64,000 nt of DNA, from positions 2,914,001 to 2,978,000 of the forward strand of contig JAGIQG010000023.1 of assembly GCA_024679065.1 (NCBI GenBank), given 5' to 3'. Below, in pieces: positions 4,384 to 57,128 of this stretch. Both the position numbers and the translations under genes were made by a program. Within the stretch, counting starts at the first letter, position 1, and each line of letters opens with the position of its first letter. Source of the DNA: Sphyrna mokarran. Its lineage: Eukaryota. A model generated the notes under the pieces. That model worked only from the letters and a program-made list of their open reading frames with translations. It ran no database searches and had not been told where the DNA came from.

Positions 4384-4667
4384 GATGTGAAGTTACCGAC
4401 ATTGAACAGGGGTAGGCACAATATGCAGTCTCACACCACCAAGTTAAACAACCAAGTTAAAGTCCAACAGGTTTATCTGATAGCATGAGTTTTCAAAGCA
4501 TTGCCCCCTCACTCTTCCAGACGCTAATGATCTTGTTTGCTGTTAGTCAAGGTCATTCATTCTTACCATTCACTCTTCACTCACCTAATCAAGGGGCAAT
4601 GCTCCGAAAGCTTATGCTATCAGATAAACCTGTTGGACTTGAAACTGGTGTTGTGAGACTATTTACT
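4384..4667 (-). mobile_element. Longer hairpin insertion, same family
   Basis: Arms 4461-4507 and 4593-4639 (4 mismatches in 47). A degenerate constant end lies in reverse orientation at 4384-4420. Confidence 0.78.
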
Positions 4668-6339
4668 CAACTTAAAAAGGATGGAGGTGCTGGGTTCAAT
4701 TGTGATTTTCTAAAGGAAATTGAACAAGACCAGAAGGGAAAAAAATGTCAGAGTTATAGTGAAAGGACAGGAGTGGGACTCCTGCAAGGATCCAGCAGAG
4801 ACTGGACAGGCTGAATGGCCTCCTCTGTGCTGGAAAGGGGAAAAGCTAGTGCAGAAAGTATTGGCAGATACGGGTCTTTTTGAACATTTGTGAGAGTGTA
4901 AGCATGTATCCATCATGCTTCTTCTGTTACCGAAACATAATTCCAAATTTGTAACACCTACGGTGATAAGAAAATGTCCTGGTTCTAGTCCAAGTAATCC
5001 AGAGATTGAGTTCAATTCTAACCATGACAATTTTTTGAAACGGGATTCAATAAATCTCGCAATTTGTAAAAACCTGAATTGTTCACAGATGCCCCTCATG
5101 AAAGTAAAACTGCCACTCCTATAATGGCTGGTCTGTATGTGAATCCAATCCCACATTTACCAGCTGTCTACTGATGTCCTCAGGATGGGCAATAATGCAG
5201 CCTTGCCAGCATCACCTGCTTCCAGAGAACAAATTCTTAAAAACTCTCACTGACTTGAGCATCTGCCAAGACCAATCAGCTTTTAAAAGACTGAAGGAAA
5301 GCACAGCAATTACACCTTGAAGCCTTATGAGACAGAGTTATAGACAGCCAACACATTGTGCAGAATAGTTACATACTCTGAAATGGTAAGAACGAATGAC
5401 CTTGACTAACAATGAGCAAGATCATTAGGGAAATCCACCAGTACAGATAAAGAGAAGTCAACAAGGCCACCACACTCCTTAATACTTACTTACCCGGTTG
5501 CTGAGCTAGAAGTCTCTTATTCTCAAGAAAGATAGGTAAGATAGAAGTAAAGAACCAAGCACAACCTACTTGTAGGACTCCAACAACCCTTGATCAAACT
5601 CTTGATTCTTTACAATCAGATCTATGTACTCACCTATCCCAGAGTCCTATGGCTTTTCTCTTCACGTACCAGGGGTGGCACAGTGGTTAGCATTGTTGCC
5701 TCACAGTGCAGGGACCTATATTTGATTCCCAGCTTGGGTCATTATGTGTGAAGTCTGCACATCTGCCCATTGTCTGTGTGGATATCCTCCAGGTGCTCTG
5801 GTTTCCTCCCATAGTCTGAAAGATTATGGGCTATGCTAAATGCTCCTAAATAGATGCCAGAGTATGATGACTAGGGGACTTGCAATGTTAATGTAAACCT
5901 ACTTATGACAGTAATAAATAAACATTAAATCCTAAGAGGGTGTTGGTGACCATAGACCTCCATGTTAATCTTGGTTTGAGGAGTGGATCAACTTCATTGG
6001 TAATATTCATCCAGTTTACGAGGCTCTTTAGAAAGGTCAGTCTTGGTCTATGTTAATCGCTTTTATCTCTTATAATCTTTCCCATCAGTGTCAGATTTTC
6101 AGAAACTATTTATTATTTTGTCCAAGAATCCAATGTCTCTTCCTGATCTTGATCAGCAGAGCTCTTTATTCTCAGATTTAGTCGCATCTCTTGATTGGCA
6201 GTGTGACTTGTCTAAGAAACCTTCATTATTTGCCTCAAAAAGCACAATTCTTCAGGCTTTCAGTTTGATTAACATTTTTCAGTGTGTAACACTTTTTGAT
6301 TTTCCAAATGAAGTACATTGAACCAAATGTAGTTTGGTT

Positions 6340-6720
6340 CATTGGTCAGAGTCTCATTTGGATTCAAGTCCCATATCAGTACAAAAAACCCAGACCAAAT
6401 CTCTTATGCAGTTCTGAAGGAATGTTACATTGTCAGAGGTGCCATCTTCTGAATGGAATGTGAAACAGATCTCATCTGTCTGTTTAGATAAATATAAAAG
6501 ATCCTCTGGTACTATTTGGGGAAGTTGTCCCCAAGTGGCAAGGACAATCTGCACCCTTTCACCACCAGCAACTTATTATCTGATTAGTAATCCCACTGTT
6601 AACTGTTGCGTACAAATTGGCTGTTATTATTGCATATATAACTGTAACCACACTTCAAAATAGCTTTTGCCTGTGAGACATCTCAAGGATATGAAAGACA
6701 TTATATAAACGCATGTGATT
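6340..6720 (+). mobile_element. Old Deu-domain SINE (SacSINE1/AmnSINE-like); further decayed copies ~8130-8500, 12180-13090 (split), 22950-23320 -, 23830-24170, 37800-38050, 39350-39660 -, 52470-52840 -, 59960-60120
   Basis: Recurrent motifs gtgctgcactg..gaggtgcc.tctt, aaagatcc.atggcactat..gaaga, tgtgc.caaattggctgc, and tail gaaaggc.ctatataaatgcaag. Confidence 0.7.
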
Positions 6721-9700
6721 TCACTGACAAAGGCAGCAAGACTTGTCAAACAAAACTTTCTGCTTATAACTTGGTAATGGCCATTAGTTAGTACTCCACA
6801 ACTTAACCTCCACTATGGCTCCTTGTTTAGTTTCCAATATTCATCTATTGCTGATATTAGATCAATGGACCTTTAGGTGTCTGGAACAGATTTGTCCCTC
6901 TAAACATAGATACTCTTCTTGATTGCTTGCAGTTCCAGAGAATTATCCCTGTCTAATCATTCTCTTACAAAATTAGGTATCCTGCAAATCTTCCCCTCAT
7001 TCCTTTCAGAATCTCAGGAAATGTAGAACCTGTCCCCATTAGTGAAACTATCACCCGTGCCCCGAGTTCTCTCAGCTTGACGTTTCCAATACAATCTTGG
7101 CTGCTTTCCCATATTCCACCCTCTGTAAACTTGAGTTCATCCCTAATTCTAGTGCATACATTCCATCTCATCACACACCAATTCCTACTGACCCTTCAAC
7201 ATCTCATGCTTACAGATTCACGTTATCTCCCAGTTAACAAGATCTTATCACAAAATTGCTACAGCACAGAAGCAGGCCATTCAGTTCATCCAGACGCTTT
7301 CCCGCATGCTATCCCCATAAAGTACTTATTTATTAGTCACAATTTAGACTTACATTAAAACCACAATGAAGTTACTGCGAAATTCACCTAGTCGCCACAG
7401 TCCGGTGCTGTTCAGGTCAATGTACTAATCAGCACGTGTTTCAGAACGTGTGAAGAAACCAGAGCACCCGGAAGACACCCACACGGGGGAGAATGTACAA
7501 ACTCCACACAGACAGTGACCAAAGTCAGGAATCAAACCTGAGTCCCTGGCGCTATGAAGCAGCAGTGCTAACCACTGCTACTGTGCATTTATCATGGCCA
7601 ATGCACCTAACCTGCGCATCTTTGGACCGTGCAAGGAAATTGGAGCACCCGGAGGAAATCTACAGACATCAGCAGAAGCTCCACAAATACAGTCACTCAA
7701 GGCCAGAATTGAAGCCGGGTTGCCTACACTATGAGGCAGCAGTGATAATTACTGCAACCACAAATCTTGATTTTAGAATTCTCATCCTTGATTTCAAATC
7801 TCTCCAAGGCCTTTCTCCTCTGTAATTTTGTTACCTCAAGCCACACAACCTTCCAAGAGTTCTGCGCTCCTCTAATTACAGCCTCTTCAGCAGCCTTAAT
7901 TTTAATTACTCCACCACTGATAGTGACTTCAGCCTTATATTCCTTACTTGATTCTCATCCTCTCTCCTAAAAACGCTTTTTAAATCTCAACTCTTAACCA
8001 AACTTTTGGCATCTACCTCGATATCTTATGCGGATCAGTGTCAAATCTGTGTTTTCTAACACTTTGAAGTGCCTCGAGAAATTTAACTACATTAACGGCA
8101 CCATTACAAGCTGTTGCCCTCTTCAGTCACACGTTAGTGTAGTAGGTTCAAGATCGATTCAGGAAAATGAAAGCTGACACCATCCCATAACTGTGGGAGA
8201 GCTACATCACTGGAGGTATAGTCTTTCTGACATGGTGTTGTACCAAAGTGGATGCAAAACAAAATTCCACGACATTGTTTAAAGAGCAGAATAGTTCACT
8301 GTAATGTCCCAGCCAACATATATCCCTCAAACAACATTGCCCAACAGATTAATTCACCATTTGCTTCATTTGTGACATCTTGCTGTGCAGAAATTGGCTG
8401 CTACATTTGCCAACAAGTGACTGCACTTTAAAAACTACACGATTGTAAAACAGTTTGGGATGTCCTGACAACATGAAAGATAATATACAAATGAGAGATT
8501 GCTTCCTACAGCGAGATCAAAGGAAATTTCTCTCCAAGGAAAATTTAAGCGTATCGGCAATTTAGCCGTGAAAATCAAATAAAAATACTTTAATTTATGT
8601 GGCTGCGTCATGCAAACCTTAGGATGCACAATGTACTGCAGAAGTTGGATAGTATATGACGCTGTGGTCAGTATTTGTAAACAACATGGTGGGAGTAATT
8701 AGCACTGCTGCTTCACAGCGCCAGGAACTCAGGTTCGATTCCCCGCTTGGGGTGACTATGAGCAGTCTGCACATTCTCCCTGTATCTGTGTGGGTTTCCT
8801 TTGGGTTCTCCGATTTTCTCCCATGGCCCGAAAGACATGCAGGTTAGCCGCATTGGCCATGCTAAATTCTCCATCAGTGTACCTGAACAGGCGCGAGAGT
8901 GTGGCGCCTAGGGGATTTTCACAGCGACTTAACTGCAGTGTAGACTTGTGACACCCACACAACAAACTTTAACATTTGAAAAGTATTTAGGGAGGAAGGG
9001 GAGGCTGGATTAAGCAGGCAGTTCCAATTGAAGCATGAACATGGTCACAGATTCAGGGAATTAATGACCTCCTTTGCGTTATGAATACATGATCTTAAGC
9101 AATGTTTATCTCTGGGTCCTTTTTTACAATGCTGATCTTCACTATTTCAGGAAATTAACACTTTTACAGTTCTACTCCCTTGCTTAATTTTACGATTCCC
9201 TATTTTTATTAGTCTATTCATTTTTCTTTTAAAAAAGTGTTTTGCTTCATTTACCTTTATTTTCTTTGGTTACGTTGCGGTTCCTCTTAAACAGAAATCA
9301 TTAGTAATTTAAATCCATTCCTTTGTGGTTTGTTCCTTAGATAATTTTTTTTTTACTCTTACATGGGACATGGACATTGCTAGCTGGCCTGCATTTATTG
9401 CCCAATCCTAGTTACCCTCGGAGGGCAGTTGATTCGACTACATTGCTGTGACTCTCAAGTCACATGTAAACCAGACCGGGTAAGGATGGCAGATTTCTGT
9501 CCCTATAAGGATATTAGTGAACCAGATAGGTTTTTCTGACAATTGACAGTGGTTTTATGGTCATCAGCAGATTAATTCCAGATTTTTTTGTTAGTTGAAT
9601 TCAAATTTCACCATCTATCAAGACAGGATCAATCCCAGGTCCCCAGAACATTAGCTCAGCTTCTGAATTGACAATCAAGCAACAATATCACAAGGCCAAT

Positions 9701-10421
9701 TTCTTGATCTTACATGGAGTCATTGTCTGTCACTCAATGTTCCTCCAGTCCTAAATTACAAAGGTTTTAACTGCTCACATAGCAACCAAAATCAAGATAA
9801 AACTCACTCCAAGTCATATCTGTAATGCATAGTTTCAGGAAGAATCTCACCCTTTTCTGCCTCCAGTTTTCTATTTCCAATTTGGATTGGATTTTTTTAT
9901 TATTAATTCATGGGATGTGGGCGTTGCCAGCTAGGTCACCATTTATTGTCCATTCCAAATTGTCCTCAAGGTGGTGGTAGTGAGCTGTCTCAAACTGCTG
10001 TAATTCATATGGTGTAGGTATAAAGTGTTACAGAGGAGTTCTAGGATTTTGCCCCAGCGACAGTGAAGGAATAGCCATATACTTCCAAATTAAGAAGGGT
10101 GAATAACTTGGAGGGGAATCTCCAGGTGATAGTGTTCCCATGTGTCTGCTGTCCTTATCCTTCTAGATGGTAGTGGTATGGAAGATGCTGGCTAAGGAGC
10201 CTTGATGAATTCCTGCAGTGCACCTAGTCATTGGTGCACATTGCTGCCACATCCTTCAAGGAGTGAATATTTGTGGAGGGAGTGCCAATCAAGCCAGCCA
10301 TTTTATCCTGCATGGAGTCAAGCTTTAGAGTGCTGTTGGAGCTGCACGCTTCCAGGCAAGAGGAGTGTATTCCATCACACTCCTGATTTGCAGATTGTGG
10401 ATGCAGGGCATGCTTTGGGGA

Positions 10422-10564
10422 AAACTCAGTAAAGTTTTACAACACCAATTTTAAATCCAACCAATTTATTTGATAGTAAACTATCAAATAAATTGGTTGG
10501 ATTTAAAATTGGTGTTGTAAAACTTTACTGAGTTTACCCCAGTCCAACGCCGGTATCTCTACAT
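10422..10564 (+). mobile_element. Short hairpin insertion (Penelope-like-derived): perfect 56-bp inverted repeat plus constant end
   Basis: 10422-10477 is the exact reverse complement of 10480-10535, followed by ccccagtccaacgccggtatctctacat. 13-bp TSD catgctttgggga at 10409-10421 and 10565-10577. Confidence 0.85.
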
Positions 10565-11240
10565 CATGCTTTGGGGAGTCAGATGATGAGTTACTCGATG
10601 CAGGATTCCTAATCTCCGAACTCCTTATGGTTGCAGGATTGATGTGGCAAATAGTCCAGTCCAGTTTCTGGTCAGCGGTAAGCCCCAGGATGTTGAAAGT
10701 GGGGATTTTGGCAATGGCAATACCATTGAATGTCATGTTAGAGATGGTTAGATTTTGTAATGTTGGAGATGGTTATTGTCTGACATTTGTGGCACAAATA
10801 TTACTTGCCTTTTGTCAGTCCAAGCCTGGATATTGTCCAGGTTTAGCTGCATCTGCACATGGGCTGCGTCAGTATCTGGGGAGTCACAAATTATGACAAC
10901 TATTGTGCAATCATCAACCAGCATTCCCATTCTGACCTTCTGAGAGCAGAAGTTGTTAAGGAAGTAGTCAATGGTGGTTAGGCCTGGGAGACCACCCTGA
11001 CGAACACCTGTAGTGATGTTCTACAGCAAAGAAGCACAACCATCTTCCTTTGTGCCAGATATCCTCGATTCCTAATGACTCCAATTTTGCTGAAGGGTCC
11101 TGACAACTACATTCGGTCAAATGTTGCTTGATATGAAAGGCAACAGCTCTCTCCTCAGCTGTGGATTTTAACTCTGGTCCCAGCTTGGACCAAGACTGCA
11201 GTGAAGTCAGGAGCCAAATGATCCTGGCTGAACACAAACA

Positions 11241-11422
11241 CAGTAAATCTCACAGCATCCTATTAAAATCCAACAGGTTTATTTGGTAGCACAAGCTTTC
11301 AGACTGTCGTTCCAGGAGTGAGACTCTGAAAGCTTGTACTACCAAATAAACCTGTTGGACTTTAACCTGGTGTTGAAAGACTGCTGTGCTTACCCTAGTC
11401 TAACACCAGCATCTCCACATCG
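11241..11422 (+). mobile_element. Short hairpin insertion, same family
   Basis: Arms 11263-11303 and 11325-11365 (2 mismatches in 41). End ccctagtctaacaccagcatctccacatc. 12-bp TSD tgaacacaaaca at 11229-11240 and 11423-11434. Confidence 0.85.
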
Positions 11423-13234
11423 TGAACACAAACAGAGCATCAGTGAGCAGATCATTGCTAAGTATGTCTCGTTTGATAACACTGTGCAGATGTACAGATT
11501 AGGAGAAGAAATAGGCCAGCCAACCCTTTGAAACTTCGCCGCCATTTAATACGATAACGACCAATCTGATGGTAACTTCAAATTTGCATCCTTTCACCCT
11601 TTAGTTCAATCCAAAATGTTTCACATGGTGTCTGCATCAGTTCAGCATCATGAATTTCCAAATTATCCTAATCAAACAGCCACCTCTCCTCATTTCCAGC
11701 TTAGCTTAATGGACGTTACTCTTCCCTCAGGACAAACTGGTCTACAGGTTGGAGACCATAACCGATAGTAGTGTTCCTCCTGGAAATGTGAAACTAAGGT
11801 CTTGTCTTTCTGGCAGCCCAGACATATACCAAAGATCCATGGCAGCATATGAAGAGTGCTCCTTGTGTACAAGCCAATACTTCACTCAAAACACACAAAA
11901 AAAGACTAATTGACTGCTCATTTATCTCATTGCAGTTTACTGGCATGGAGCATTTATATTTGCTTTTATCCTATCACCATAAAATTAATTGTTTCGGGCA
12001 CTCTAAAAGCTTTCAGCGAGAAGTGCAAAGTATACGATCTTTTCATTACTTCATTCTTGCTGAATCTCCTGTACCCAACATACTGAATTTAGTCTTGCTT
12101 ACTGTGATGATTATATTTTTGCAATCACTGCAACAGGGTCATGAAAGTTTGTAGTACTCTGAAGTTAACCAGAAGAGACAGCACAATCACTTGAATCAGA
12201 AGGTCACGGGTTCAAGCGCCACTGCAGGACTTTGGTGTATCTCCTAGGATGAGACTTCATCACAGCACTGAGGGAGTGCTGCACTGGAGTGCATCTTTTT
12301 TCAAGAAGTGTTTCAACAAAGACCTTGTCTGCCTGCTCAAGGTAGTGTGAAAGATTCCATGGCACTATCTGAAGAACAAGGCAGCTCTTCCCAATATCCC
12401 AACCACCATTTATCCCTCAGCCATCATCACAAGAAATAGATTAACTGGTAACTTATCCAGTTGCTGTTTACAGACCTTTGCTTTGTGCAGATAGGAACCA
12501 AAGGAGGAGTAGGCCATTTAGCCATCAAGCCTACTCCATCATTCAATACAATCATGACTGATCATCCACATCAATGCCTTCGTCCAACATTATCTTCATA
12601 TCCTTTCATGTCAATCTCTGTTTTAAATGTACTCAATGAAGGAGTTTCAACAAACCTCTTGGGTAGAGAATTCCAAATGTTCACAACACTAAAATTTCTC
12701 ATCTCAGTCCTAAGTGGCATCCTCTTTACTTTAAAATCATGCCCTCTGGTTCTAGATTCGCCAGCCAGGGGGAATATCTTATATTTGCTGACCTGCATTA
12801 TCCTTTAACTATTTTTACTGTGTGCTGCATTTATATATATATAAGTAACTTTGCCTCAACAGTAACGAACTGCCTGTGAAACACTTTGGAAAATAATAGG
12901 ACAAGGGGGAGGCCATTCAGCCCCAAACCATTCCATCATTGTATTTGATATTGGGTTAATCAGTACCCCATCTTAAATTATTCACCTTCTCCCTACGTTC
13001 CTTGATACCTTTACCTAACAAAAATTTGAATCTTGAAATTCAACAAAACCAACATGCCACAAGATCATGAAAGGCAATATAAATACAACTTCTTCCAATT
13101 CTGGTATCTCAGTGCATTGCAGATTTCATATATAGAGTACTCTCTGTTCATTTACAATAACTTGGATTTACTTCTTGCAACTTCCACTCCCTCCTCCTGA
13201 TCACTAAGCTACCTCTGTCACCTACATTTCAGTA

Positions 13235-17079: not shown

Positions 17080-17558
17080 CTGAGGAATGAATACATCTAT
17101 TATATTATTGAGATTGGAACGTGAAAGCCACATTTGTAGATGTCTTGAATACTTTCATTTGACCTTGACAGATTTTTGTTATCCTGGGATAACCCAGACA
17201 AGTCTGTTCTACCACTATCTGTAAATACACACAATGAAATACTAGGATGCGTAGTTAGGACAATATAAAACAAGAAAGGATGAGGGCTGGCTCTGGATTC
17301 AGCCCATATGGAATACTGCATTCAGTTTTGGCTGCCTGATATGGTGACTGCAGCTATTTCAACTAATTGCTTTTCTCACCTTGCTTTGTTCCTTAAGGAA
17401 ATCCTGGCAGTAAGAGAAGCATCAGCTTTATTTTCCCTAGTGATGGATTACTGTATAGCATTCCAAGCCAGAGTGCACACAGAGCAGAATACAGAGTCTG
17501 AGCAGAGTCAAAGCTCCAGCTGATGTGAGAGCACGTCCATGCTTCTCATTCTTCCTAC

Positions 17559-17765
17559 CTGGGTAACCGGTCCCATTGGCAGTGGGTCGTTCTTCATCTT
17601 CCTCTTCATCTGGGACTGTGGTATCAGCTCGCTGCATCATGCTCACAGATGTCGTTCGTTTTCTTTGTGCCTCATCTGAGCCATCATCTAGAACAACCTG
17701 ATCCACTACATCCTGCTGAAAGGGACCAGGTTCTGCTGGAGGTTTTGGCGTTCCATAAAAATTAC
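17559..17765 (-). CDS. MAGI3: MAGI3 coding exon (~exon 4): (G)[68 protein letters not shown]
   Basis: 207 bp, acceptor tttgacag|, donor CAG|gtagga, phase 1-1. [12 protein letters not shown] and QRKRTTSVS are MAGI3-type motifs. Confidence 0.92.
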
Positions 17766-19025
17766 CTGTCAAATATCAGGAGGGGCACAAACAGTGTGAG
17801 CTTATATCCCACTTTTCACATTTCACTTCCTTTTAATTGTTATTTAATAAATAACAATCATTCATTCAATCACACATTTTTCACATGTTAATCAATCCTC
17901 AAAGCTAAAGTTCCCCCTTTGCTCATGGCCAGATTGCTGTGTCATCCTGAGTCTACGCAGAGTTCAATATCGGCCATAAGTAAAGCCAGCTACAGATGTG
18001 TAAAATTAACCAGGGCTAACACTGCAGCCTGTAATCTTAACCCTCGCTGGAGGCACCTGCATACAGAATGGGTGGGGCTCAGCTGAAACACTCAAATACT
18101 TCCTGTTAAATAGGCAAATAGCCAAAGGCAAGGTGAAGGAAGCTGAGCTGTAGTACAGAAAGCAGACATCTTCAGAAGACAACTGAACATACTCAGGAAT
18201 ATACAGAACTTTGCTAATATATATGCAGAAAAATGTTTCTATTTGTGGGGGACTTCAGAACCAGGAGCCATAAACATAACAGTCACCCATCAGTGCAATA
18301 GGGAATTTAGGAGAAACTTTTACCTTGAGTAGCAAGAATGTGGAACTCATTACACAAGTCGGGGTGAGGTGAATAATGTAGCTATAAATTAAGAAGCTAG
18401 AGAAGTAGATGAAGGAATAAGAAATGCTGATGTGAGGAGATGAGAAAGGATGAGAAGAGGCTTGGGTGAAGCATAGACAGAGACCAGCTGGAGCATATGG
18501 CATGTTATGGTATTGTGAATTTTATATAATACAAACTTTGGAATCAATAAAACTGAGGAAAATGGTCAATAGTTACAGTAACATCTTAACAATCATAAAT
18601 TACAAGAACATTAATGTTAGCCCATCTCATGTGACATTGCAGTATTCAGGTAAAATGTGATCAGAAGGGATAATTGGATGAGAGAACAATGATATAATTG
18701 TGTTCCTATTTCCAAACCATCTATTCTGACCTTATTGGAACTTCCTACATCCATATTTGTAATGGAAACTGATTAAGATGCAAAGTTGACCATGAGGTAG
18801 TATGGAGAAACACAGGGTGCTTTGTATAAGGACAAACAAAAAATATCCAACAGTGACTATTACAGCAATCTTAGTTAAACTCCTGATAGCTAACTGGTGA
18901 AGAACACCAGATGTCAATCTGTACTCCAGGTTTAGATTTTGTTGTGAAGCCATACTTTATGTTGAATATGACTTCATGTATTCACAGGCTGAAAACCATT
19001 GAGTTTTAAGAAAGTAAACAGCAGC

Positions 19026-22434: not shown

Positions 22435-22755
<321 letters not shown>

Positions 22756-25297: not shown

Positions 25298-25474
<177 letters not shown>

Positions 25475-28119: not shown

Positions 28120-31100
28120 TCGTTAAGGACAGGCAACAACACCTGCTCCATGATTATCCTCAACACTGGCGTCCCAGAAGGCTAACTTCTCAGCCCCCTA
28201 CTATAGCCCTTACACACCTATAGCTGAGGTGGGCTGAGATTAGAAACAAGAAAGGAGTGATCACACTGTTGGGAGTTTTTTATAGGCCTCCAAAAAGTTC
28301 CAGAGAAGTAGAGGAAGGGATTACAAAGTTGATCCTGGATAGGTGTGAAAGTAACAGGGTAGTTGTAATGGGGGACTTTAACTTTTCTAATATCGATTGG
28401 AAAAGCTATAGTTCAAGTACGTTAGAGGGGTCAGTTTTTGTTCAATGTGTGCAAGAAGGTTTCATGACTCAGTATATAGATAGACCAACAAGAGGTGAGG
28501 CTATATTGGATTTGGTACTGGGTAATGAACCAGACCAGGTGTTAGACTTGGAGGCGGGTGAACACTTTGGTGATAGTGACCACAATTCGGTTACGTTTAC
28601 CTTAGTGATGGAAAGGGATGGGCACATACCGAATAACAGTAGTTATAGCTGGGGGAAAGGTAATTATGAGGCTATTAGGAGAGATTTAGGATGCATAGAG
28701 TGGAGAAGGAAATTGCAGGGGCTGGGGACATCTGAAATGTGGAGCATATTTAAGGAACAGCTTCTGCATGTCCTTAATGAATATGTACCTGCCAGGCAGG
28801 GAGGAAGTGGTCGAGTGAGGGAACCACGGTGTACTAAGGAAGTTGAATCTCTGGTGAAGAGGAAGAAGGAGGCTTATATAATGATGAGACATGAAGGCTC
28901 AGTTAGGGCAATGGAGAGCTATAAATCAGCCAGGAAGGAGCTAAAGAGGGAGTTGAGAAGAGCTGGAGAGGACACGAGAAGACTTTGGCAGATAGGATTA
29001 AGGAGAATCCTAAAGCTTTTTACAGGTATATAAATAATAAAAGATTGGTTAGGGCAAGATTAGGGCCAGTCAGAGATAGCAGTGGGAAGTTGTGCGTGGA
29101 GCCTGAGGAGATAGGAGAGACACTGAATGAGTATTTTTCTTCAGTATTCACGCAGGAGAAAGACAATATTGTCGGGAAGAATACTGCGATACTAGGTTGT
29201 AGACTGGGCAGGATTGAGGTTCATAAGGAGGAGGTGTTAGCTAATCTTGAGGGTATGAAAATTGATAAGTCCCCTGGGCCAGATGGGATTTACCCTAGGA
29301 TTCTCTGGGAGGCTAGAGAGGAGATTGCAGAGCCTTTGGCTTTGATCTTCATGTCGTCGTTGGCTACAGGTATAGTGCCGGAAGACTGGAGGATGGCAAA
29401 TGTTGTCCCTTTGTTCAAAAAGGGAGTAGGGACCATCCTGGAAATTATAGACCGGTGAGCCTGACTTCTGTTGTGGGCAAAGTCTTGGAAAGAATTATAA
29501 GGGATAGGATTTATAAGCATCTAGAGAGAAAAAAATTGATTAGGGATAGTCAGCACGGTTTTGTGAAGGGTAGGTCGTGCCTCACAAACCTTATTGAGTT
29601 TTTTGAGGAGGTGACCAAAGAGGAAGATAAGGGTAAGGCAGTTGATGTAGTGTATATGGATTTTAGCAAAGCGTTTGATAAGGTTCCCATGGTAGGCTAC
29701 TGCAGAAAGTGCAGATGCATGGGATTGAAGGTGATTTAGCAGTTTGGATTAGGAATTGGCTAGCTGATAGAAGACAGAGGGTGGGGGTTGATGGGAAATA
29801 TTCAACCTGGAGTGCAGTTACAAGTGGTGTACCTCAAGGATCTGTTTTAGGGCCACTGCTGTTTGTCATTTTTATAAATGACCTAGATGAGGGTGTAGAG
29901 GGTTGGATTAGTAAATTTGCTGACGATACCAAAGTGGGGGAGTTGTAGACAGCGAGGATGGATGTTACAGTTTGCAGAGGGACATAGATAGGTTGCAGAG
30001 CTGGGCCGTGAGGTGGCAAATGGAATTCAATACGGATAAGTGTGAGGTGATTCACTTTGGTAGGAATAACAGGCATATGAAATATAGGGCTAATGGAAGG
30101 ACCCTTAATAGTTTTGTCGAGCAGAGGGATCTTGGGGTACAAGTACATAGCTCTTTGGAAGTTGGCACCCAGGTTGATAAAGTTGTTAAGAAGGCGTACG
30201 GTGTGTTAGCTTTTATTGGTAGAGGGATTGAATTTAGGAGCCTTGAGGTTATGTTACAACTGTACAAAACTCTGGTGCGGCCGCACTTGGAGTATTGCGT
30301 AAGTTCTGGTCGCCGCATTATAAGAAAGATGTGGAAGCATTGGAAAGGGTGCAGAGGAGGTTTACCAGGATGTTGCCTGATATGGTGGGAAGGCCTTATG
30401 AGGAAAGGCTGAGGGACCTGAGGTTATTTTCATTAGAGAGAAGAAGGTTACGCAGTGACCTAATTGAGGCGTATAGATGATCAAGGGATTGGATAGGGTG
30501 GATAGTGAGAGCCTTTTTCCTCGGATGGTGATGACCAACACGAGGGGACATAACTTTAAAGTAAGAGGTGGTAGTTATAGGACGGATGTCAGAGGCAGGC
30601 TCTTCATACAGAGGGTGGTGAGGGCGTGGAATGCCCTGCCTGCAGCAGTTGTGGACTCGCCTACTTTGGGGGCATTCAAATGTTTGGTGGATAGGCATAT
30701 GGATGACATTGGAATAGTTTAGGTTAGAGGGTCCACTGGCTGGCGCAACATCGAGGGCCGAAGGGCCTGTACTGCGCTGTAATGTTCTATGTTCTATATC
30801 TGTGTGGCCAAATTCCCCTCCAATTCAGTTTCCAAGGTTGCTGACACCACAACCGTACTGGATTGGATCTCAATGACGAGACAGAGCACAGGAATGAGAT
30901 AGAGAATCTGGTGAACTGGTGTGGTAACAATAATCTCTCACTCAATGTTAGGAAATGAAAAAAATCGTCATTGACTTCAGGAAGCATAAAAGAGGACATC
31001 ATTGGGGATGAAGTGGAAATGACCGAAAGCTTCAACTTTTTAGGTGTCCGGATCACGGTGCCCTGGTTCCCCTATGCCAACACTATAGATAAGAAAGTCC

Positions 31101-38800: not shown

Positions 38801-41070
38801 TTTGACCTGCCTCCCTAACATTATCCTCTCTTACTGCAGGCTCCAATCGTAGCAGGAGACCTTATGTATGGCAACAATTCAAGGCTTCAGCAACAGCAGC
38901 TGCTTTGCATAAATTGGCCCCGAGTGCCAGTAACCACACTAGCATGAGGCAACAGTCTTAAACCAGTTCAAAGTCTAATCCCAAGCATTTTTCATCAATC
39001 TAGGCCGCCTTAACACTTTGAATGTTTGAAGTCTTGCTTGAAATATTTCAGCTCAAAAGGGCATTTTGTCAGAATTGGCAATGAAATAGTTACATTTTGG
39101 AATGAGAGATTGTGTGTGCTACACACTCATGTTAAGTGCTGAATGAACTTGATGCACCAGTAGTCAGGGAACACTCAAGTCAACCAACAAACGGCTTGAG
39201 GCTGCAAATGAAAAATGCAACAAGCTCACTGCCATGGTGATGATGTCATTTGCGTTAATGGCTGCAGTAATGATAGGCAAATCTTTACTGCAAACAAATC
39301 TCAATGTACAGGGCTGGTCAGAGTGTTGGAATGTTGAAAATAAATGGGACAACAAGCTTACATTTATATTTATCCAATTCCTTTCCTGACCTCAATGCAT
39401 TCTAAAGCACTTCACAGCCAATAATGTACTTTAAGTGCAAACATCAATTTATGCACAGTCAGGTTTCACAAACAGCAACTGGATAATGACAATTCCAGAT
39501 TTAGTGATGATGGTTATGGGGAAATTAGCCAGGGCAATAGCGAGAGAACAGCTGCTACTCTTCTCATAGCTTACCTCCACTAGAGGCAGACAATGCTTTG
39601 TTTGCCTCATCTGAATGAAGGCACTCTGATGGTTTAATGCTCCCTTAGTGCTGTGCTGAGAGTCAGATTGTGAACTACCTGTTAAGTGTTCCTCACCATA
39701 CCAAGACAGGTATCTCATGTAGAAACCAAGAAAATAGAACGATACCCACAGACAGTGGTGTCTATCTGCTACAAAGGCACATGGAAACACAGAATAGCAC
39801 CTCTCTACGTGCAATCAGGTTTCAAATTTGTATGAATAACAGTGCAATAATCAGTAACAATGATAAATAACACCTGCAATTTTTATTGCTTATATACCCA
39901 TCTTTCATGTCTTCCAGAATGAAGAATCCGACTCCACCTTCTCTTTGGCCAGCCTTTCACTAAAAACAAAAATTCCTCAAATCGGATATTGGCCAACATA
40001 GCTGTGTACAGCAGCTGTGGGAAGCAAATGGACTCCAAGAAAATAACTAATGTTAATTACACTGGATTTGGGCAGCAGAACCTCAGCAGAAATTCTTGGA
40101 AAATATGCACACATTATTGCATTAAGCTTAGAAATAAAAAGTCATCCAGTCCAGAAGGGCAGGGTGTGCATGGAATGTACAATTATAAAAGGACAGCACA
40201 TTCCAACAAGCAGTCATCACTTCAGAAGTGCAGCATAAACATTCCATCCAACTGATGTTTATAGTCCTTAAAAGCCTCCTCCCAGTTTGTCTTCTCATTT
40301 CTTTCTCCCTCAAGTTCCCATCTAGATTTCTCTTAAATACATCTATGCTTTCATCAGAACTTTCTATGTGGTAGCGAGTATCACTTTCTCACCACTACCT
40401 TGGTGACAAAATCTCCCCCGAATTCCCTACTGGATTTATTACTGAATATCTTATATTTGGCCCCTAGTTTCCAAAAGTGGAAACGTCACTTCTTCAATTA
40501 GTTACGAATAATCTGTGTTGGATCATCCTTACAACAATGACAAAATGGAGTCTCAGTCAGGTAAGGGCACTCAGAAGGAAACGGGGTTTGCTAAATGAAG
40601 AGCCTACTGCCCATAATAGAAGTAGAAAAGCACCCCCTTTAAATCAAAAATACCATCGCCATCATACAGGGAGAAACAAAGGAGAAGGTGCCTGCAGCTG
40701 CACATCCCTCCGTTGCACAAGCTTGCTATTCCGAGCACAATCAATTGCTGTTGAAGTTAGGGAGACAAGTCAGCAAATGCAATTTATATACAGCGAGATC
40801 CCACTAACAGCAATAACACGAATACTCCGTTCACCTGATGTGACAGTAGCAGCTAAAGGATAACCGCTAGCTAGAGTTTCCCTGACTGGGTCAGTGCAAA
40901 CATTTACCTGAACAGTCAACCAGCAAGCAACGTGATGCCCCCTCCAACAATGTGGCACTCCCTTGTCACTACTCCCTCCAACATTCCCTTAGTGCTGGAA
41001 CATCCCCCATAGTACTGGACTAAACCAATAGCCTCGATAAAGGTTAAAGTTTATTTTTTAGTTACAAGTA

Positions 41071-42403
41071 TTGGAGAGAATTATTAGGGATAGGATTTAT
41101 AGTTATTTAGAGAGAAATGAATTGATTGGGGATAGTCAGCATGGTTTCGTGAAGGGTAGGTCATGCCTTACTAACCTCATTGAGTTTTTTGAGAAAGTGA
41201 CCAGAGAGGTGGATGGGGGTAAGGCGGTTGATGTAGTATATATGGACTTTAGTAAGGCTTTTGATAAGGTGGCCCATGGAAGACTTCTACAGAAAATGCA
41301 GATGTGTGGAATAGAGGGTGATTTAGCTAATTGGATTAGGAATTGGCTGGCAGATAGAAGACAGAGGGTGGTGGTTGATGGGAGATATTCATCGTGGAGT
41401 TCGGTGACGAGTGGTGTGCCTCAGGGGTCTGTTTTGGGGCCCCTGCTGTTTGTAATTTTTATAAATGATCTGGATGAGGGTATTGAGGGATGGATCAGTA
41501 AATTTGCAGATGACACTAAAGTTGGTGGAGTGGTAGATAGTGAAGAGGGGTGTTATAGTTTACAGAGTGACTTGGACAAGTTGCAGAGCTGGGCCGAGAG
41601 GTGGCAAATGGAGTTTAATGTGGAAAAGTGTGAGGTAATGCACTTTGGCAGGAACAATAAATGTGTAGAGTATAGGGCTAATGGTAGGGCTCTTAATAGT
41701 GTTGAGGAACAGAAGGATCTTGGTGTATGTGTCAATAGATCCCTGAAAGTAGGCAGTCAAGTGGATAAAGTTGTTAAGAAGGCATATGGAGTCTTAGCTT
41801 TTATTGGTAGGGGGATTGAATTTAGGAGCCGCAGCATCATGTTGCAACTGTACAAAACTCTAGTGCGGCCGCACTTGGAGTATTGTGTGCAGTTCTGGTC
41901 CCCACATTATAAGAAAGATGTGGAGGCATTGGAGAGGGTACAGAGGAGGTTTACCAGGATGTTGCCTGGTATGGAGGGCAGGTCCTATGAAGAGAGGTTG
42001 AAGGATTTGAGGTTGTTTTCGTTAGAAAGGAGGCGGCTAAGAGGGGATCTTATTGAAGCATATAAGATGATTAGAGGTTTAGATAGGGTGGACAGTGATA
42101 GCCTTTTTCCTAGGATGGAGAAAGCTAGCACGAGGGGACACAGCTTTAAATTAAGGGGTATGAGTTATAGGACGGATATCAGAGGTAGGTTCTTTACTCA
42201 AAGAGTGATTAGGGAGTGGAATGCCCTGCCTGCAGCTGTTGTAGATGCGCCAAGTTTGGTGGCGTTTAAGAGGTTAGTTGATAAGTATATGGATGAGAAG
42301 GGAATGGTTTAGTTAGGAGGGGCATTGCTTTTTATTTTGGTCGGCACAACATCGAAGGCCGAAGGGCCTGTTCTGTGCTGTATTGTTCTATGTTCTATGT
42401 TCT
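41071..42403 (+). mobile_element. Young 5'-truncated CR1 LINE, uninterrupted 413-codon RT/C-terminal ORF2 fragment plus 3'UTR
   Basis: RT motifs [25 protein letters not shown]. (tgttcta)n tail. aagta is duplicated at 41066-41070 and 42404-42408. Inserted in a minus-strand V-SINE. Confidence 0.96.
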
Positions 42404-49594: not shown

Positions 49595-49869
49595 TGGCAA
49601 AAGCTCCCTTTTGTACTATAACTGGGATTTGATAGGTTAAAAGAGAGCCTTGAATTATGAGACCAAATTAAAGTCAGCAACCAGCACTTTCAGTAGCACG
49701 GACACAAGATACAATGAAGTGTGAACGAATATTCCAATGATAGGAGCGTTTTGCAGCAAAGTTTGGCACATTATGAGTCTCATGGTCACGCCTCGCACTG
49801 CGATTCGACAGCTAGGAACATGGCATTTTAAAAAGTTTTATTCCATAACTGCCTCAAAGAAATAATCAT

Positions 49870-51362
49870 TTAGAGTCATAGAGATTTACAGCAGGGAAAC
49901 AGGCCCTTCGGCCCAACTTGTTCATGCTGCCCTTTTTAAAAAAACCCTAAACTAATCCCAATTGCCCACATTTGGTCCATATCCCTCTATACCTATCTTA
50001 CCCATGTAATTATCTAAATGCTTTTAAAAAGATAAAATTGTACCTGCCTCTGCTGCTACCTCTGACAGCTTGTTCCAGACATTCACTACCCTTTGGACAC
50101 TTTTGTATCTTTCCCCTCTCACCTTAAACCCATGCCCTCTAGTTTTAGATTCCCCTACCTTTGGGAAAATATATTGACTATCTAGTTGATCTATGCCCCT
50201 CATTTTATAGATCTCTAAGATTGCACTTCAGCCTCCTACACTCCAGAGAATAAAGTTCCAGTCTATCTAGCCTCTCCTTATAACTTAAACCATCAAGTCC
50301 TGTGAGCATCCTTGTAAATCTTTTCTGCACTCTTTCTAGTTTAATAATATCCTTTCTATAATAGGGTGACCAGAACTGTAGTATTCCAAATGTGACCTTA
50401 TCAAGATCTTGTACAACTTCAATAAGATGTCCCAATTCCTATATTCAATGGTTCTGATCAATGAAATCAACCACGCTGAATGCCTTTTTCACCACTCTGT
50501 CCACCCGTGACTTCACTTTCAAGGAGCTACGAACACGTACCCCTAGATCTCTTTGTTCTGTAATTCTCCCCAGTGGCTTAGTGTTAACTGAAGTCCTGCC
50601 CTGGTTCAATCTACCAAAATACATTACCTCACATTTGTCTACATTAAACTCCATCTGCCATTTGTCAGCCCACTGGCCCAATTGATCAAGATCCCGCTTC
50701 AACTGGAGATAACTTTCCTCACTGTCCACAGGCCAATCTTGTCGTCATCTGCAAACTTATTAACCATGCCTCCCATACTCTCACCCAAATCATTTATGTT
50801 AATGACAAATAACAGTGGGGTCAGCACTGATCCCTGAGGCACCCCGCTGGTCACAGGCCTCCAGTTTGAAAAACAAGTCTCTACAATCACCCTCCGGCTT
50901 CTGTCAAGCAGCTAATTTTGTATCATTTAGATACCTCACCCTCGACCCCATGACATTTAACTTTACATAACAACCTACCATGTGGCACCTTTTCAAAGGC
51001 CCTGCTAAAGTCCATATAATCAACTGCACTGTCCTCATCTACCTTCTTGGTTACTCCTTCAAAAAACTCAATTAAATTTGTGAGACATGATTTTCCACTC
51101 TCAAAGCCATACTGACTGTCCCTAATCAGTCCTTATATCTCTAAACGTCCGCAGGTCCTGTCTCTCAAAATACCTTCCAACCACAGATGAGAGACTCATT
51201 GGCCTGTAGTTCCCAGACTTTTCCCTGCAGCCCTTTATGAACAAAGGCACTAACGTTTGCTGCTTTCCAATTTCAGGCACATCACCCGTGATTATCAATG
51301 ACTCAAATATCTCAGCTAGGGGACCCGCAATTTCCTCCCTAGCCTCCCACAAAGTCTTGGGA
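49870..51362 (-). mobile_element. Degenerate CR1 ORF2 3' portion
   Basis: ORFs 50205-51352 give [35 protein letters not shown], with the tail at 49870. Confidence 0.9.
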
Positions 51363-51369
51363 TGAACTT

Positions 51370-52025
51370 TACAATGCTACTAGCTTCACTATGGCTGAAA
51401 AAGAGAACCTGGTGGCATGAACCACAATAAGAACAGCCATAGAAAGGAGCAGCAGGGCTGCCCTCACAGCCAGAGAGAGAGAGGAACAGCAGGCACCTGA
51501 AAACATTAGAGAAGTGCCACCAGTGCTGCCACCGCCACAATATCCTGCAAATCTACTGGCAGGATAGGCACACCAACATCAGTTTTCTCACTCAAGACAA
51601 CATCGAAGCACTGATTCTGCCTGATCAGCTCTGCTGTGTGGGCCACATTGTCTCCATACCCGACACGCAACTCCCAAAGCAAGCATTCTACTTGGAACTT
51701 CAACACGGCTAGCAAACCCCAGGAAGGAAGAGAAAACACTTCAATGAAACCCTCACCATGAGAATCTCTGGGCCAAGACAATCTGAAAGGGAGGAAAAGC
51801 ATCCAGGAAGGAGCTGAACACCAAGTTTCATCACCAAGAATGAGCTAAAACCAAGCATCACCAGCACCCCAGACACACCACCAGGTGCCCACTATCCCAG
51901 CACCACCTACCCACCTGTAACCAAGACTCTGACTGTGTATTCAACTCCTCCATTAACTGAGAGCTCATTTTTTGTGTGGAAACAGATCATCCCCAATTCT
52001 GAGGGAATACCCAAGAAGGCAACGG
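51370..52025 (+). mobile_element. Degenerate RTE-clade LINE 3' portion
   Basis: Reads SRHLKTLEK.HQ.C...ILQI.WQDR.TNIS.L...QL...GH....PDT.LPKQ.FY.ELQHG...RK.F, the typical RTE C-terminal region. Confidence 0.7.
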
Positions 52026-53840
52026 ACATAGTTTTTGAAAAAAACATCCTTTAATGTTTCAAGTCTGAAACTAGCCCGGATGCTCTGCACATTAATAGTG
52101 ATGCCCTTTTCAGATCAGACTACGCCAAGTTTCTTAAGATTCTTCTTCAAAACTCTGGTGAATAGAATTTTGTGTTGGCACTTCCAGTGACAAACAGCAA
52201 ATCTGAGTAATTTCTTGGGGATGTGTTCTGAGCACAAATAGGAACTGGAGACCATTTAAATGCATTTTTTAAGTCATCAAACGAGGTGATTTGCCTCACG
52301 CTGACAAAGCCTAACTAGTTTTTTCAAACATGAGATCATGAGCTTATTCACTGAGCCCCCAGTGTTTCTTGAATACGACAATGCAGCGGGCATGGAGCAA
52401 GCTCAAACAGTTGGGATATAGAGAAAAAAGTAATTTGTTAACTGAAACAATAATAGGGCGCCTGCCAGCTTTGACCTCAGGACATTAAAGTTCTTTACAG
52501 CCAATGAAATAGCCTGGAAGTAAAAACATTGTAATAATGTAGGGAACACAGCAACAACTTGCGCACAGTCAGAAAGTCAACAACTTTCCCACAGACAGCA
52601 ATGACCAAGCAATGTGTTTGAGAGATAAACATTGGCCAGAATGCCCCATTTTCCTTCCAATAATACTGTGCCGTGGGATCTTTTATATTCTCCCATAGAG
52701 TGTAGACTGGGCTTTGAGTTAATGTCTCATTTACCTTCTAACAGTGCAGCACTCCCTCAGTACTCCCACTGAATGTCAGGCTGGATTTTGTTTTCTGTCC
52801 AGCAGTGGGGTTTGAATCCATAAACACATGACTGAGAAGATGAAGTGGAACCTAACCAGGCCAATAAGATAAGCCAATGGCCTCACTCGTACATACTAAG
52901 CTACCCACTGCCAGTTTCTAGTCCATCACCAGACAGCTTGTTAGAGCTACAATTTGTGAGCCAGTACACAAAGGGTTAAACGTAACACGTCTGCCAAATA
53001 GGAACCACAGGAAGAAAGCTCCTCGGCAAAATCTCCGCTGGTCTCAGCTGCAGCAGATTGTTTGACCTCTGTTCACTGAAGCGCACAGGACAAACCATCC
53101 CTGGACAGACCAACACCTAATACATCAAAGCCAAGTGCGTGCCTCTAACAAGAGAGGAAGGTTCCTGAAGGATAGAACACAGTCATAGCCTACGTCTTTA
53201 TAACAGCTGCACGATGACAAGAACACTAAAGTGACAAAGTGGATTATTCAACCTTACCATGTGCAAATTGCATGCATATTTGTCTAAAAATCAAGTCACC
53301 ACACTTCAAGAGTTTATCATGGGATTCAGTAGACCTTGCAACATTCCAAGGTAAAGAATGGCGCAATATAAATTCAAGTACATTCTTGCCATTAGGCAGA
53401 TAGGAAGTCATCTTAAGAGATTGAAAGGAAATACAACTGAGGAATTGGCAGAGTCAGATAGTTTGAATGAGATACAGCTTGGCAGCAGCAGGACTTGGTA
53501 GAAATTCTCTTTGGAAGAAATGATGCAAGAGGGAGAGCATCAGATGTCGGAGGCACTGAGAGCCATCTGGGGCAGAAGGGACCTTACAAGATGGGCAAGT
53601 TACACCTTAACAGAACCAGGAGTAATACTCTGGCAGAGACATGTTGTTGTTGTTGGGGAGGCTTGCCAGGAGGATCGGAACCTGAGGGCTAGGTCAAATG
53701 GGGAGGTAGAGCTGCTAACAGGATGTAGAAAATTAGAAAGCGAAATTAGAAAACAGGAGAAACAAAGCAAGCATCAACCAGGCTTAAAATGTGGAATAAT
53801 ATTAAAAAGACTAAGCCAAAGGCTATCTACCTGACTACAC

Positions 53841-53946
53841 GATGTGGAGTTGCCAGCGTTGGACTGGAGTAGGCACAGTAAGTAGAATCATACTCATCTG
53901 ATGGAGCTACATTCAAATACCTGATGTTGTGAGACAACTTACTGTG
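53841..53946 (-). mobile_element. Degenerate short hairpin insertion, same family
   Basis: gatgtggagttgccagcgttggactggagtaggcacagtaag...cttactgtg, with an imperfect ~15-bp TSD tctacctgactacac / tctatctaaatacac. Confidence 0.72.
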
Positions 53947-56736
53947 TCTATCTAAATACACACATTGGCAACAAGGTAAATGATTTAAAGCCACAAGCAA
54001 AGGTAAATGGGTATGATCTAATTGTCAGTACGGAAACATGACTACATGGGAACTGAATATTCGAGGATATTTGACTTTTAGGAAGAACAGGCCAAAAGGG
54101 GAAGGAAGTGGTGCTGATAACAAGGGCTTGGATCAGTACATTCATATGGGAATATCTCAGATCGGAAGAACAAAAAGTGGAATCTGTTCAGGTGGAGCTA
54201 AGAGACAGTAAGGGGTAATAAATATTGGCAGTTGTTTATAGGCTAAACAGTCGTGACAGTGCAGGGCACGGTATTAATCAGGAGATAAGAGAAGCCTTAG
54301 TACAATAATCATGGGTGACTACAACGTGTACATAGACTGGGTAAAGCTGATGAGACTAAAGAACAGGCTCTTTTAGCATTAGAGTTACGTCACAAGAAAG
54401 AGCCAATTGGTAATCTTGTTATGAAAGAACGTTTAGGAATGAGTGACCAAATAAAACATGATTGAATTTCACATTATGTGTGATAGTGAGGTAATTCTGA
54501 TGCCAGGGTGTGACATTTGAACAAAGAAACAATTGTGAAGCGCGTGTGCGGGGGGATAAATTTGCTGAGGTAGATTGGAAAAACACATTCAGAAATATGA
54601 TAGTTTACAGCAATTGTACATTCCTTCATGATAAAAACCCAAAATGTCAGTCAAATGTGATTAAAAGATTAAAGGCTAATAAATTTGCCAGATTGAATTG
54701 TAAACTTGGGGATCAGGATCATTTTATTATACAAAGGAGAACCAAGAAACCAGCACCAGGAACCCAGGTTTAATGCCTGGCCTCAAGTCAACATCTGTGT
54801 GGACTTTGCACATCCTCCTCATGTCTGAGTGGGTTTCCTCCAGGTGCTCCGGTTTCCTCCCACAACCCAAAGATGAGAGATTTACGTTGTTTGGCCATGC
54901 TACATGAACCCTCGTGTCAGGGGATTAGCAAGGCAAATATGTGGGGTTACGGGATCAGGGCCTTGGTGGGACTGTGGTCAATGCTGACTCAATGATCCAA
55001 ATGGCCTCCATCTGCACTGTGGGCATTCAATGATTCTATGAAACCGATCAGGGGGAATAACATAAATGTAAACAAGCAAAAACACTGTAAAAACTTCTAT
55101 AGGTATGTAAAAAAGAAACATTTGGCCAAGATAAATGTGGGCCCATTACAAAGCAAAAGTCAGGAGAATTCATAATGGCAAACAGAAAAATGGCAAAGAA
55201 GCTAAATACAAGATAGCTTCCAGAATTAGAGATCTAACGGACTATGGAGAATGAGGAATTGAAGGAAATATGCATGAGCAAGAGATTGTATTAGACAAAT
55301 TAATGGGACTGAAGATTGATAAATTCACAGGACCTGACATTTTCCATCCAACAGTGCTAAAAGAGGTAACTATGGAGATAGTGGATGCACTGGTGATCAC
55401 CTTCCAATAGTCTATAGATCCTGAAATGCTTCCTGAAGATTGGAATGCGGCAAATATCACTCCACTAGTTAAAATGAGAAGGAGAGAGAAAACGGAGAAC
55501 CACAAACCTGTTGAGCATTACATCAGCAGAATAAAGATGCTGGAATCTGTTACAAAGGATGTGACAAATGGGCACTTAGATAATAATGATACGATTAGGC
55601 ACAGTCAGCATGGATTTATGAATGGAAAATTGTGTTTGATGAATTTTTCAAGGATGTTAAAATATAAGTTGATAAAAGGGGAATCAGTTAGACTAATAGA
55701 TGTGGATTTTCAGAAAGCTTTTGACAAAGTTTCCCACAGGAGATTGGTTCCCAAATTAAGGCACATGGGAAAGGAAGCAATACACTGGCATAGATTAAGA
55801 GTTGGTTAACAGGCAGAAAAAAGTAGGAGTAAACAAGCCATTATTGCATTGACAGGCTGTGACTAGTGAGCTACCACAGAGATCAGCAGTTGGGCACCAG
55901 CGCTCACAATATACATCAATGATTTGTATGTGGGGACAAAACTGAGAATCACTACAGTGCAAAAGGAGGCCACTCAATCCATCCAGACTGCACCGCCAAC
56001 AGTCCCACCCAGGTTCTACTCTGTAACCATAAGTATTTACCCTGCCAATTCCCCAGGACAATAAGGCCCAATTTAGCACAGCTGATCAACTTAACCCACT
56101 CATCTTTTGGTCATTGGAGGAAATCAGAGCACCCAGAGGAAACTGACACAGATACAGGGAGACCATTCAAATTCCACACAGTCAGTTGAGGCCAGAATTG
56201 AACCCGAGTTCCTGGTGCTCTAAGGAAGCAAAGCTAAACTTTGTACCGTGGTGCTGCTCCCTAAAATATTTTATTTCCACGTTTGCAGATGACATAAAGC
56301 TTGGTGGAAACATTTATAAGGAAGATGCAAAGTGATTTAAGGACTGACTTATCGAGGGTACAAATATGCAGATGGAATATAATGTGAATAAATGTGAAGT
56401 TATAGTCATTGGTATTAGGAACAAGTGTGTAAAGTATTTAAATGGTGTAAGGTTAGAAAGTGTAGATGTACAAAGGGATCTTGTCAATAAGTTACTGGAA
56501 GCTAACATGCAGGTGCAGCATGTATTCAGGAAAGCTAATGGTATGTTAGTCTTTATTACAAGAGGATTGGAGTAGAGCAATAGCAAAATCTTGTTTCAAT
56601 TATACGGAACCTTAGTACTGGGTACAGTAAAAGCAAAATACTGCAGATGCTAAAAAATCTGAAAAGAAAATGCTGGAAAAATATAGCAGGTCTGGCAGCA
56701 GAGAAGAGAAATAGAACTCTGATGTTCTCAGATGCT

Positions 56737-56806
56737 ACAATGCAGAGATGCCGGCGTTAGACTGGAGTAAGCACAGGAAGAAGTCTCACACCAGGTGTTG
56801 TAAGAC
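56737..56806 (-). mobile_element. Minimal hairpin insertion, same family
   Basis: gagatgccggcgttagactggagtaagcacaggaagaagtctcacaccaggtgttgtaagact, with 12-bp TSD ttctcagatgct at 56725-56736 and 56807-56818. Confidence 0.78.
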
Positions 56807-57128
56807 TTCTCAGATGCTGCCAAACCAACGTTTTCTGGCTTTATAATCTAGGGTACTGTGTGCAGTTTTGGTCCCTGAGGAAGGGTATTATTGCCATTGG
56901 GAGTGCAATAAAGATTCACCACACCGGTTCCCAGGAAGGCATGACTGTCCTACGAAGAGAGATTGGGAAAACTGGGTTTGTATTCTCTTGAATCTGAAGT
57001 TGAAAGGTTACCTCATCGAAGCCTAAAAAATATTTCGGGGGATGGATGGAGTCAATGTAGGTAAGGTGACTCCTCAATTGGGGAATCTAGAACCAGAGAG
57101 GATAATTTCAAGATAATGGGGAAGCCAC

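Follow-up and report, generated by a model that had tools for sequence, protein, structure and literature searches.

The 64,000-nucleotide stretch of the great hammerhead genome (Sphyrna mokarran, contig JAGIQG010000023.1) analyzed here, referred to as the window, contains five short self-complementary insertions, abbreviated c1 to c5 (Table 1). Each is a truncated, head-to-head insertion of an autonomous Penelope-like element (PLE), composed of two inverted arms. One arm ends in a short tail, and the other typically stops before the tail. An earlier reading of the window, made from the sequence alone, had placed five copies at these coordinates, and when the window is scanned with a profile made from natural copies, these five are the only matches. 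Several of its other statements are borne out as well. Exact target-site duplications (TSDs) of 12 to 13 bp surround c2, c3 and c5, a decayed TSD of ~15 bp surrounds c4, no poly-A is seen in the sequence of the copies, and the point of fold-back varies between copies. A search for a TSD at c1 found none left. The claim of one constant terminus is correct in part. Genome-wide, the 29-nt end occurs in 1066 exact copies in the 2.77-Gb genome, compared to 0 for the reversed control. However, it is exact in 0/5 window copies (at most three mismatches in 2/5), and the family as a whole lacks a constant end, given that 20/66 solo copies are tail-less.

Table 1. Features of the window, with positions counted from its first nucleotide
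Feature	Position	Strand	Remarks
c1, head-to-head insertion, old	4384..4667	.	Tailed arm ~4384-4510 (element sense on -), tail-less arm ~4572-4667 (+)
Captured 47-nt inverted host DNA between the arms of c1	4524..4570	-	89% identical to 5382-5428
Host source of the captured piece of c1	5382..5428	+	~800 bp away
c2, left TSD copy	10409..10421	+	13 bp, exact
c2, hairpin, young	10422..10564	.	Tail-less arm ~10422-10479 (-), tailed arm ~10480-10564 (+)
c2, right TSD copy	10565..10577	+	13 bp, exact; GTCAG half-site follows
c3, left TSD copy	11229..11240	+	12 bp, exact; CTGGC half-site precedes
c3, hairpin, old	11241..11422	.	Arms joined within hammerhead stem II, ~-118 on both
c3, right TSD copy	11423..11434	+	12 bp, exact
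c4, left TSD copy, decayed	53826..53840	+	12/15 identical, ungapped
c4, hairpin, old, short	53841..53946	.	Tail on the left side
c4, right TSD copy, decayed	53947..53961	+	
c5, left TSD copy	56725..56736	+	12 bp, exact
c5, minimal hairpin	56737..56806	.	Tail on the left side; arms meet in a short near-palindrome inside the element, ~-55/-57
c5, right TSD copy	56807..56818	+	12 bp, exact; first bases are also the element's continuation (microhomology)
MAGI-family exon, Guanylate_kin	22435-22755	-	E 4e-9
MAGI-family exon, MAGI_u1	17440-17775	-	E 3e-9

The arms of c2 are 98% complementary, compared to 88% in c1, 81% in c4 (over 21 nt) and 80% in c3. The tailed arm of c2 is 97.6% identical over 85 nt to the pseudo-long terminal repeat (pLTR) of L231, a locus that bears an open reading frame (ORF), and c1, c3, c4 and c5 are 78-86% identical to older copies. 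A contig from another sequencing run joins position 10408 to 10565 with a single copy of the 13-mer and without c2; this contig is ~90% identical and may be a paralogous copy of a repeat. In X2, a more distant run, one contig spans the tail end of c3 and its right flank (11402-11900) at ~90% identity, and c3 may therefore be common to a relative. The 47-nt piece between the arms of c1 has, beyond its source at 5382-5428, no match in the window or in loci L001-L225.

The Penelope origin proposed from the sequence alone is confirmed by extension to longer copies, which run into the coding end of an element and then into its reverse transcriptase (RT). In L181, a single ORF of 893 amino acids contains both RVT_1 (E 1.2e-9) and GIY-YIG (E 4e-4) domains. 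The L181 protein is 34% identical over 728 amino acids to P0012, a protein with a passing GIY-YIG match. The closest named proteins to the RT of the element are uncharacterised shark proteins (66-74% identity), and a genome search with one shark protein returned 69 scored matches, mostly stop-free. A PDB sequence search with an RT fragment gave only two weak matches, both to group II intron-like RTs (E 0.26). When the PLE protein was compared to the window by tblastn, there was no match, and the window therefore holds no parent copy. The family may already be in Dfam or Repbase. Protein P0006, annotated as a shark epsin-2 isoform, is fused to the RT of this PLE family; the fusion is probably exonised or mis-annotated element sequence.

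The element has the order pLTR-ORF-pLTR, found in L175, L181 and L182 and in the young loci L230, L235, L236, L246, L247 and L259. What had been described as the fixed end is the tail of the pLTR, which ends at the ATG of the ORF. Long copies stop there or ~35 nt earlier, with the tail-less ends located at -32 to -38. The pLTR carries a putative hammerhead ribozyme, where the core pattern CUGAnGA-stem II-GAAA-GCU is matched in 12 of the 15 loci examined. An intact core is present in 0/5 window copies, and an Rfam scan of the window returned nothing at the gathering score. In L182 (617-3690) and L236, the 5' and 3' pLTRs of the same element are unlike in hammerhead stem II and were therefore probably copied from different templates.

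The translation, read by eye, has C-x4-C-xx-C ahead of the GIY-like core, and two Cys and two His residues in the endonuclease (EN). Neptune clade PLEs are characterized by a C-terminal EN, a CX2-5CxxC linker and a CCHH motif (PMC8557442), and minimal hammerheads are found in vertebrate PLEs (PMC4209133). The linker and the CCHH features of the present element appear to be Neptune-type, and the minimal hammerhead is shared too. Neptune is, however, tied to microsatellite targets (PMC8557442), and the present insertions lie outside of microsatellites, with 1/70 TSDs being a simple repeat (L017).

A census of the window and loci L001-L225 gave 136 hairpins, where the hairpin of L051 and L108 is counted twice. 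A tailed arm is paired with a tail-less arm in 121, the pairing is ambiguous in 9, both arms are tail-less in 4, and 2 were scored as two-tailed. One of these two calls is c2, whose alignment extends into the TSD. Among the 35 hairpins that were not selected on the tail, 27 are mixed, 4 are ambiguous, 4 are tail-less pairs, and none has a double tail. In a young long set of 40 loci chosen by protein score, 15 loci are two-armed and all 15 are mixed. The hairpin lengths are continuous from 76 to 1972 nt and reach ~6 kb in the young long set. L226, L240, L258, L259 and L260 are young palindromes of 5-6 kb, in each of which two near-full-length copies meet head to head between TSDs of 12-13 bp. 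No tandem arrays were found at the copies.

Likelihood clustering assigns both arms to a single subfamily in 57/60 decidable pairs (chance 0.28; 44/104 ambiguous), and in c1, private variants are common to both arms. Two different templates per insertion were considered after a crude classifier gave 15 discordant pairs, and the idea was rejected when likelihood clustering left 3/60, a noise-like remainder. Among 132 hairpins, 46 pairs agree in their junction coordinates, and most of these junctions fall in the hammerhead hot zone. In L051 (1360-1590) and L108, the only pair examined for this, the junction and a private variant are shared, but so are both flanks, and the pair was therefore duplicated passively inside another repeat.

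Arm lengths were measured by split alignment of the 132 hairpins, from which 33 picked by c3 likeness or long arms were removed, leaving 99. The reach of the two arms is within 10 nt of each other in 40/99 (permutation mean 14.4) and, outside of the hammerhead zone, within 12 nt in 20/55 (permutation 5.1). Where one arm is at least 30 nt longer, it is the tail-less arm in 28/99 and the tailed arm in 5/99 (p 7e-5), with a tail-less excess of up to ~1000 nt. The 15 long young insertions divide into 8 where the tail-less arm has the greater length and 7 where the tailed arm does, and therefore no one direction of fold-back fits all. Stops are concentrated 120-149 nt from the tail end, where 59/160 arms terminate (17/66 solos and 42/94 longer hairpin arms). 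This zone is at or barely upstream of the hammerhead core (-125), and its per-bin stop rate is 0.22 compared to 0.06 elsewhere, in bins picked post hoc. Internal deletions of at least 6 nt are found in one arm of 16/104 pairs and in both arms of 5/104, and all 5 both-arm deletions coincide with a subfamily indel.

TSDs with a score of at least 8 are present in 70/127 hairpins, compared to 2/250 mismatched pairs. They range from 8 to 19 bp with a mode of 13, and 53/70 are 10-15 bp long. The peak at 12-13 bp lies within a palindromic site, CTG-N16/17-CAG. In the 61 best empty sites, the TSD is flanked at a distance of two bases by CTG(G/T) on the left and by (C/A)CAG on the right. The motif has an information content of 6.7 bits, compared to at most 4.1 bits in 30 null sets, and is also seen without realignment. 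In an independent test, motif positions were fixed beforehand and applied to the 25 of 40 young loci with an exact TSD of at least 10 bp. The word occurs in 33/50 half-sites (6.8% in random DNA) and both halves occur in 10/25 sites (background 0.5%; p 3e-17). Held-out ends (144 tailed and 81 tail-less) are ~3-fold enriched at the expected distance, in windows picked post hoc. At the outer ends, microhomology between the TSD and the element averages 1.98 nt where the end is tailed (56/61; shuffled 0.50) and 1.04 nt where it is tail-less (48/61; shuffled 0.54). A search of the element itself for the full target motif gave no match.

With somewhat better than even confidence, the hairpins are read as dead, 5'-truncated PLE insertions for which a dimeric RT-GIY-YIG protein cuts both strands of a palindromic site and primes DNA synthesis from both ends. 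The observed parts are the parent element, the mixed pairing of tailed and tail-less arms, the size of the TSDs, the symmetry of the target motif, the outer microhomology, and the coupled arm lengths with their tail-less bias. The dimeric enzyme would cut the two strands ~12-13 nt apart, and each 3' overhang would anneal to the element RNA by 1-3 nt. One overhang would start synthesis at the distal RT site (ATG), generating the tail, and the other ~35 nt further in, generating the tail-less arm. A template jump or end joining by the host may then link the two cDNA 3' ends head to head, in some cases capturing local DNA. The captured 47-nt host piece in c1 fits such an open junction. Less securely, the near-equal arms of many tiny copies, which stop 120-149 nt from the tail end, might result when both RTs run off one RNA 5' end, or stall at a common barrier, slightly ahead of the hammerhead core. 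If RT began at the 5' pLTR and ran off the 5' end of the RNA, such stubs would be expected, and an RT barrier at the ribozyme fits equally. In D. virilis, a start has been mapped inside the pLTR (PMC2377424).

A more specific proposal, put forward tentatively and a little short of an even chance, is a symmetric dimer. Its GIY-YIG domains would recognize a pair of CTG/CAG half-sites separated by two helical turns, with a near-fixed stagger of 12-13 nt and two RT starts ~35 nt apart. If true, one rule would cover the tail seen across the class as well as the inverted copy and the tiny hairpins, the last being run-off copies of the 5' leader of the RNA. Such a dimer departs from the view in PMC8557442, which has monomeric nicking and variable second-strand cleavage.

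Several observations weigh against priming from both ends of a palindromic cut. All of the mechanistic steps are read from old genomic scars. Two RTs in lock-step would give a +35-nt peak in the arm difference; this peak was sought and is absent. The equal-arm peak (40/99) is also predicted by fold-back, both routes on one RNA give identical sequence, and junction positions are uncertain by 10-20 nt within the self-complementary hammerhead. A TATA-like word 34-36 nt ahead of the hammerhead core occurs in just 19/55 arms. Among the tail-unselected hairpins, 4/35 are tail-less pairs and 4/35 are ambiguous. The CTG/CAG word is missing in 17/50 young half-sites, and c2, c3 and c5 each have one half-site at most; the target motif is a loose preference and is not strict. 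Finally, the GIY-YIG match in L181 scores 21.1 bits, slightly below the Pfam cut-off of 22.6.

Equal arms are also expected from the main rival route, in which one priming event begins a cDNA at the tail-less start, this cDNA folds back to serve as its own template, and a brief further priming from the distal start supplies the tail and resolves the hairpin. Together with the one-sided tail-less excess, this route explains the equal-length peak, the joins at internal palindromes (c2, c5 and L034) and the same-subfamily arms. It is nevertheless considered unlikely because it cannot make a much longer tailed arm, which is found in 5/99 short hairpins and in 7/15 long young insertions. Internal deletions confined to one arm outnumber those in both arms, which also argues against self-copying, though a later deletion is possible. 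Moreover, this route too requires priming of both strands.

In published accounts, an antisense transcript serves for self-priming and the endonuclease then trims one end (PMC3846280; EN-mediated resolution of the tail in PMC8557442). The head-to-head geometry and the palindromic joins are accounted for in this way, and the TATA-like word of the older pLTRs is readable either way. For the present insertions, antisense self-priming is judged quite improbable. Microhomology between target and element is present at both outer ends, and in vitro, sense RNA is copied from a nicked target, on both strands and from two starts (PMC11167929).

The explanations offered by the sequence-only reading were that the tailed cDNA folds back on itself or that the hairpins form a non-autonomous family that is mobile as a unit, and these are less probable again. 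Simple fold-back of a tailed cDNA fits the 5/99 cases with a longer tailed arm and some of the equal-arm cases. An arm cannot exceed its template, so this route fails for the 28/99 hairpins whose tail-less arm holds sequence that the tailed cDNA never had, and it is refuted as a general rule. No hairpin was seen to have moved as a unit: L051 and L108 share their flanks, and the lengths form a continuum from the smallest hairpins to ~6 kb. DNA transposons typically have inverted arms and palindromic targets, but a miniature inverted-repeat transposable element or other DNA transposon is scarcely credible here, as the earlier reading had also held, because the arms are the 3' end of an element with a linked RT-GIY-YIG ORF, the tail is one-sided, the ends are unequal, and neither the length (76-1972 nt) nor the TSD (8-19 bp) is fixed.

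The layout of an inverted pLTR, a one-sided tail and a TSD is already known, and its supposed novelty is not upheld. In Adineta vaga, Pen2/Pen2a inserts with an adjacent inverted pLTR, one 31-bp tail and TSDs of 8-10 bp, and this was read as self-priming (PMC3846280). The same layout is drawn for all EN-containing PLEs in Fig. 2 of PMC8557442, where its origin is named as an open question. The shark insertions share with Pen2/Pen2a the inverted 5'-truncated copy, a tail of 30-40 nt at one end, the TSD, the palindromic joins and the lack of poly-A. The Pen2/Pen2a TSDs are 8-10 bp in few copies, whereas here the mode is 12-13 bp in a symmetric motif. In their available text, PMC3846280 and PMC8557442 give self-priming or EN-mediated resolution and no arm-length statistics.

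The Poseidon protein of Anolis carolinensis (PAc) has been shown to cleave and extend both strands in vitro (PMC11167929). The tail is bounded by two adjacent sites where PAc RT begins, the protein is a predicted dimer, and its RNA requires the first 172 nt of the ORF (PMC11167929). Both systems have an RT with a C-terminal GIY-YIG, a pLTR hammerhead and two tail-bounding RT starts. PAc favors AT-rich ATT sites, with RT beginning 111-118 nt into the ORF. The shark element instead has its distal start at the ATG, a CTG-N16/17-CAG site and a CX4CxxC linker that is absent in Penelope/Poseidon. PMC11167929 does not assign one start site per strand. Neither a PLE target of the CTG-N16/17-CAG type nor a shark Neptune family is reported in the literature searched, with most subscription journals outside it. 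The interest lies in the palindromic target motif and the tailed/tail-less pairing rule, rather than in the hairpins. In L1 twin priming, both target strands prime cDNA, resulting in an inversion; the second primer acts upstream, and the two segments are mostly non-overlapping. Here, in contrast, both arms have their starts no more than ~35 nt from a common 3' end and overlap over nearly their whole length. Animal retrozymes of the non-LTR type are short, hammerhead-bearing elements derived from PLE pLTRs and include a chondrichthyan case (bioRxiv 10.64898/2026.07.22.740005). They are head-to-tail tandem units, whereas the present copies are single head-to-head insertions with TSDs and no unit mobility was seen.

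In 40 random 10-kb stretches (400 kb), 27 insertions of the family were found, covering 8078 bp or 2.0%, and the reversed sequence gave 0. The density is ~1 insertion per 15 kb, close to the ~1 per 13 kb estimated from the window. The random-sample density is similar, and therefore the 5 per 64 kb in the window are ordinary, at the genome-wide density and without local enrichment. Extrapolated to the genome, the total would be 123,000-272,000 insertions. The window lies inside a MAGI-family gene on the minus strand, as found by scanning 100 of 210 non-repeat frames, and the intronic placement of the copies is therefore plausible. The earlier reading suggested that the insertions seed hairpins into host pre-mRNA. 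Of the copies folded (c2, c4 and c5), c2 folds strongly relative to shuffled sequences (z -19), but c4 (z -0.44) and c5 (z -0.11) do not beat the shuffles. The window also contains RT/endonuclease pieces of long interspersed nuclear elements at 28224-29455 (+), 41062-42309 (+), 55411-55806 (+) and 57218-58297 (-), which we take from their motifs to be CR1/L2-like.

The hairpins are ordinary scars of insertion and matter chiefly for repeat annotation, at ~1 per 15 kb and ~2% of the sampled DNA. The PLE family that leaves them is young, abundant and has intact ORFs, and it bears on the question of how inverted, one-tailed insertions arise, named as open in PMC8557442. A defined target and one start per strand are directly testable in vitro with the assay of PMC11167929. 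If true, they would describe a retrotransposon able to write DNA on each side of a double-strand cut.

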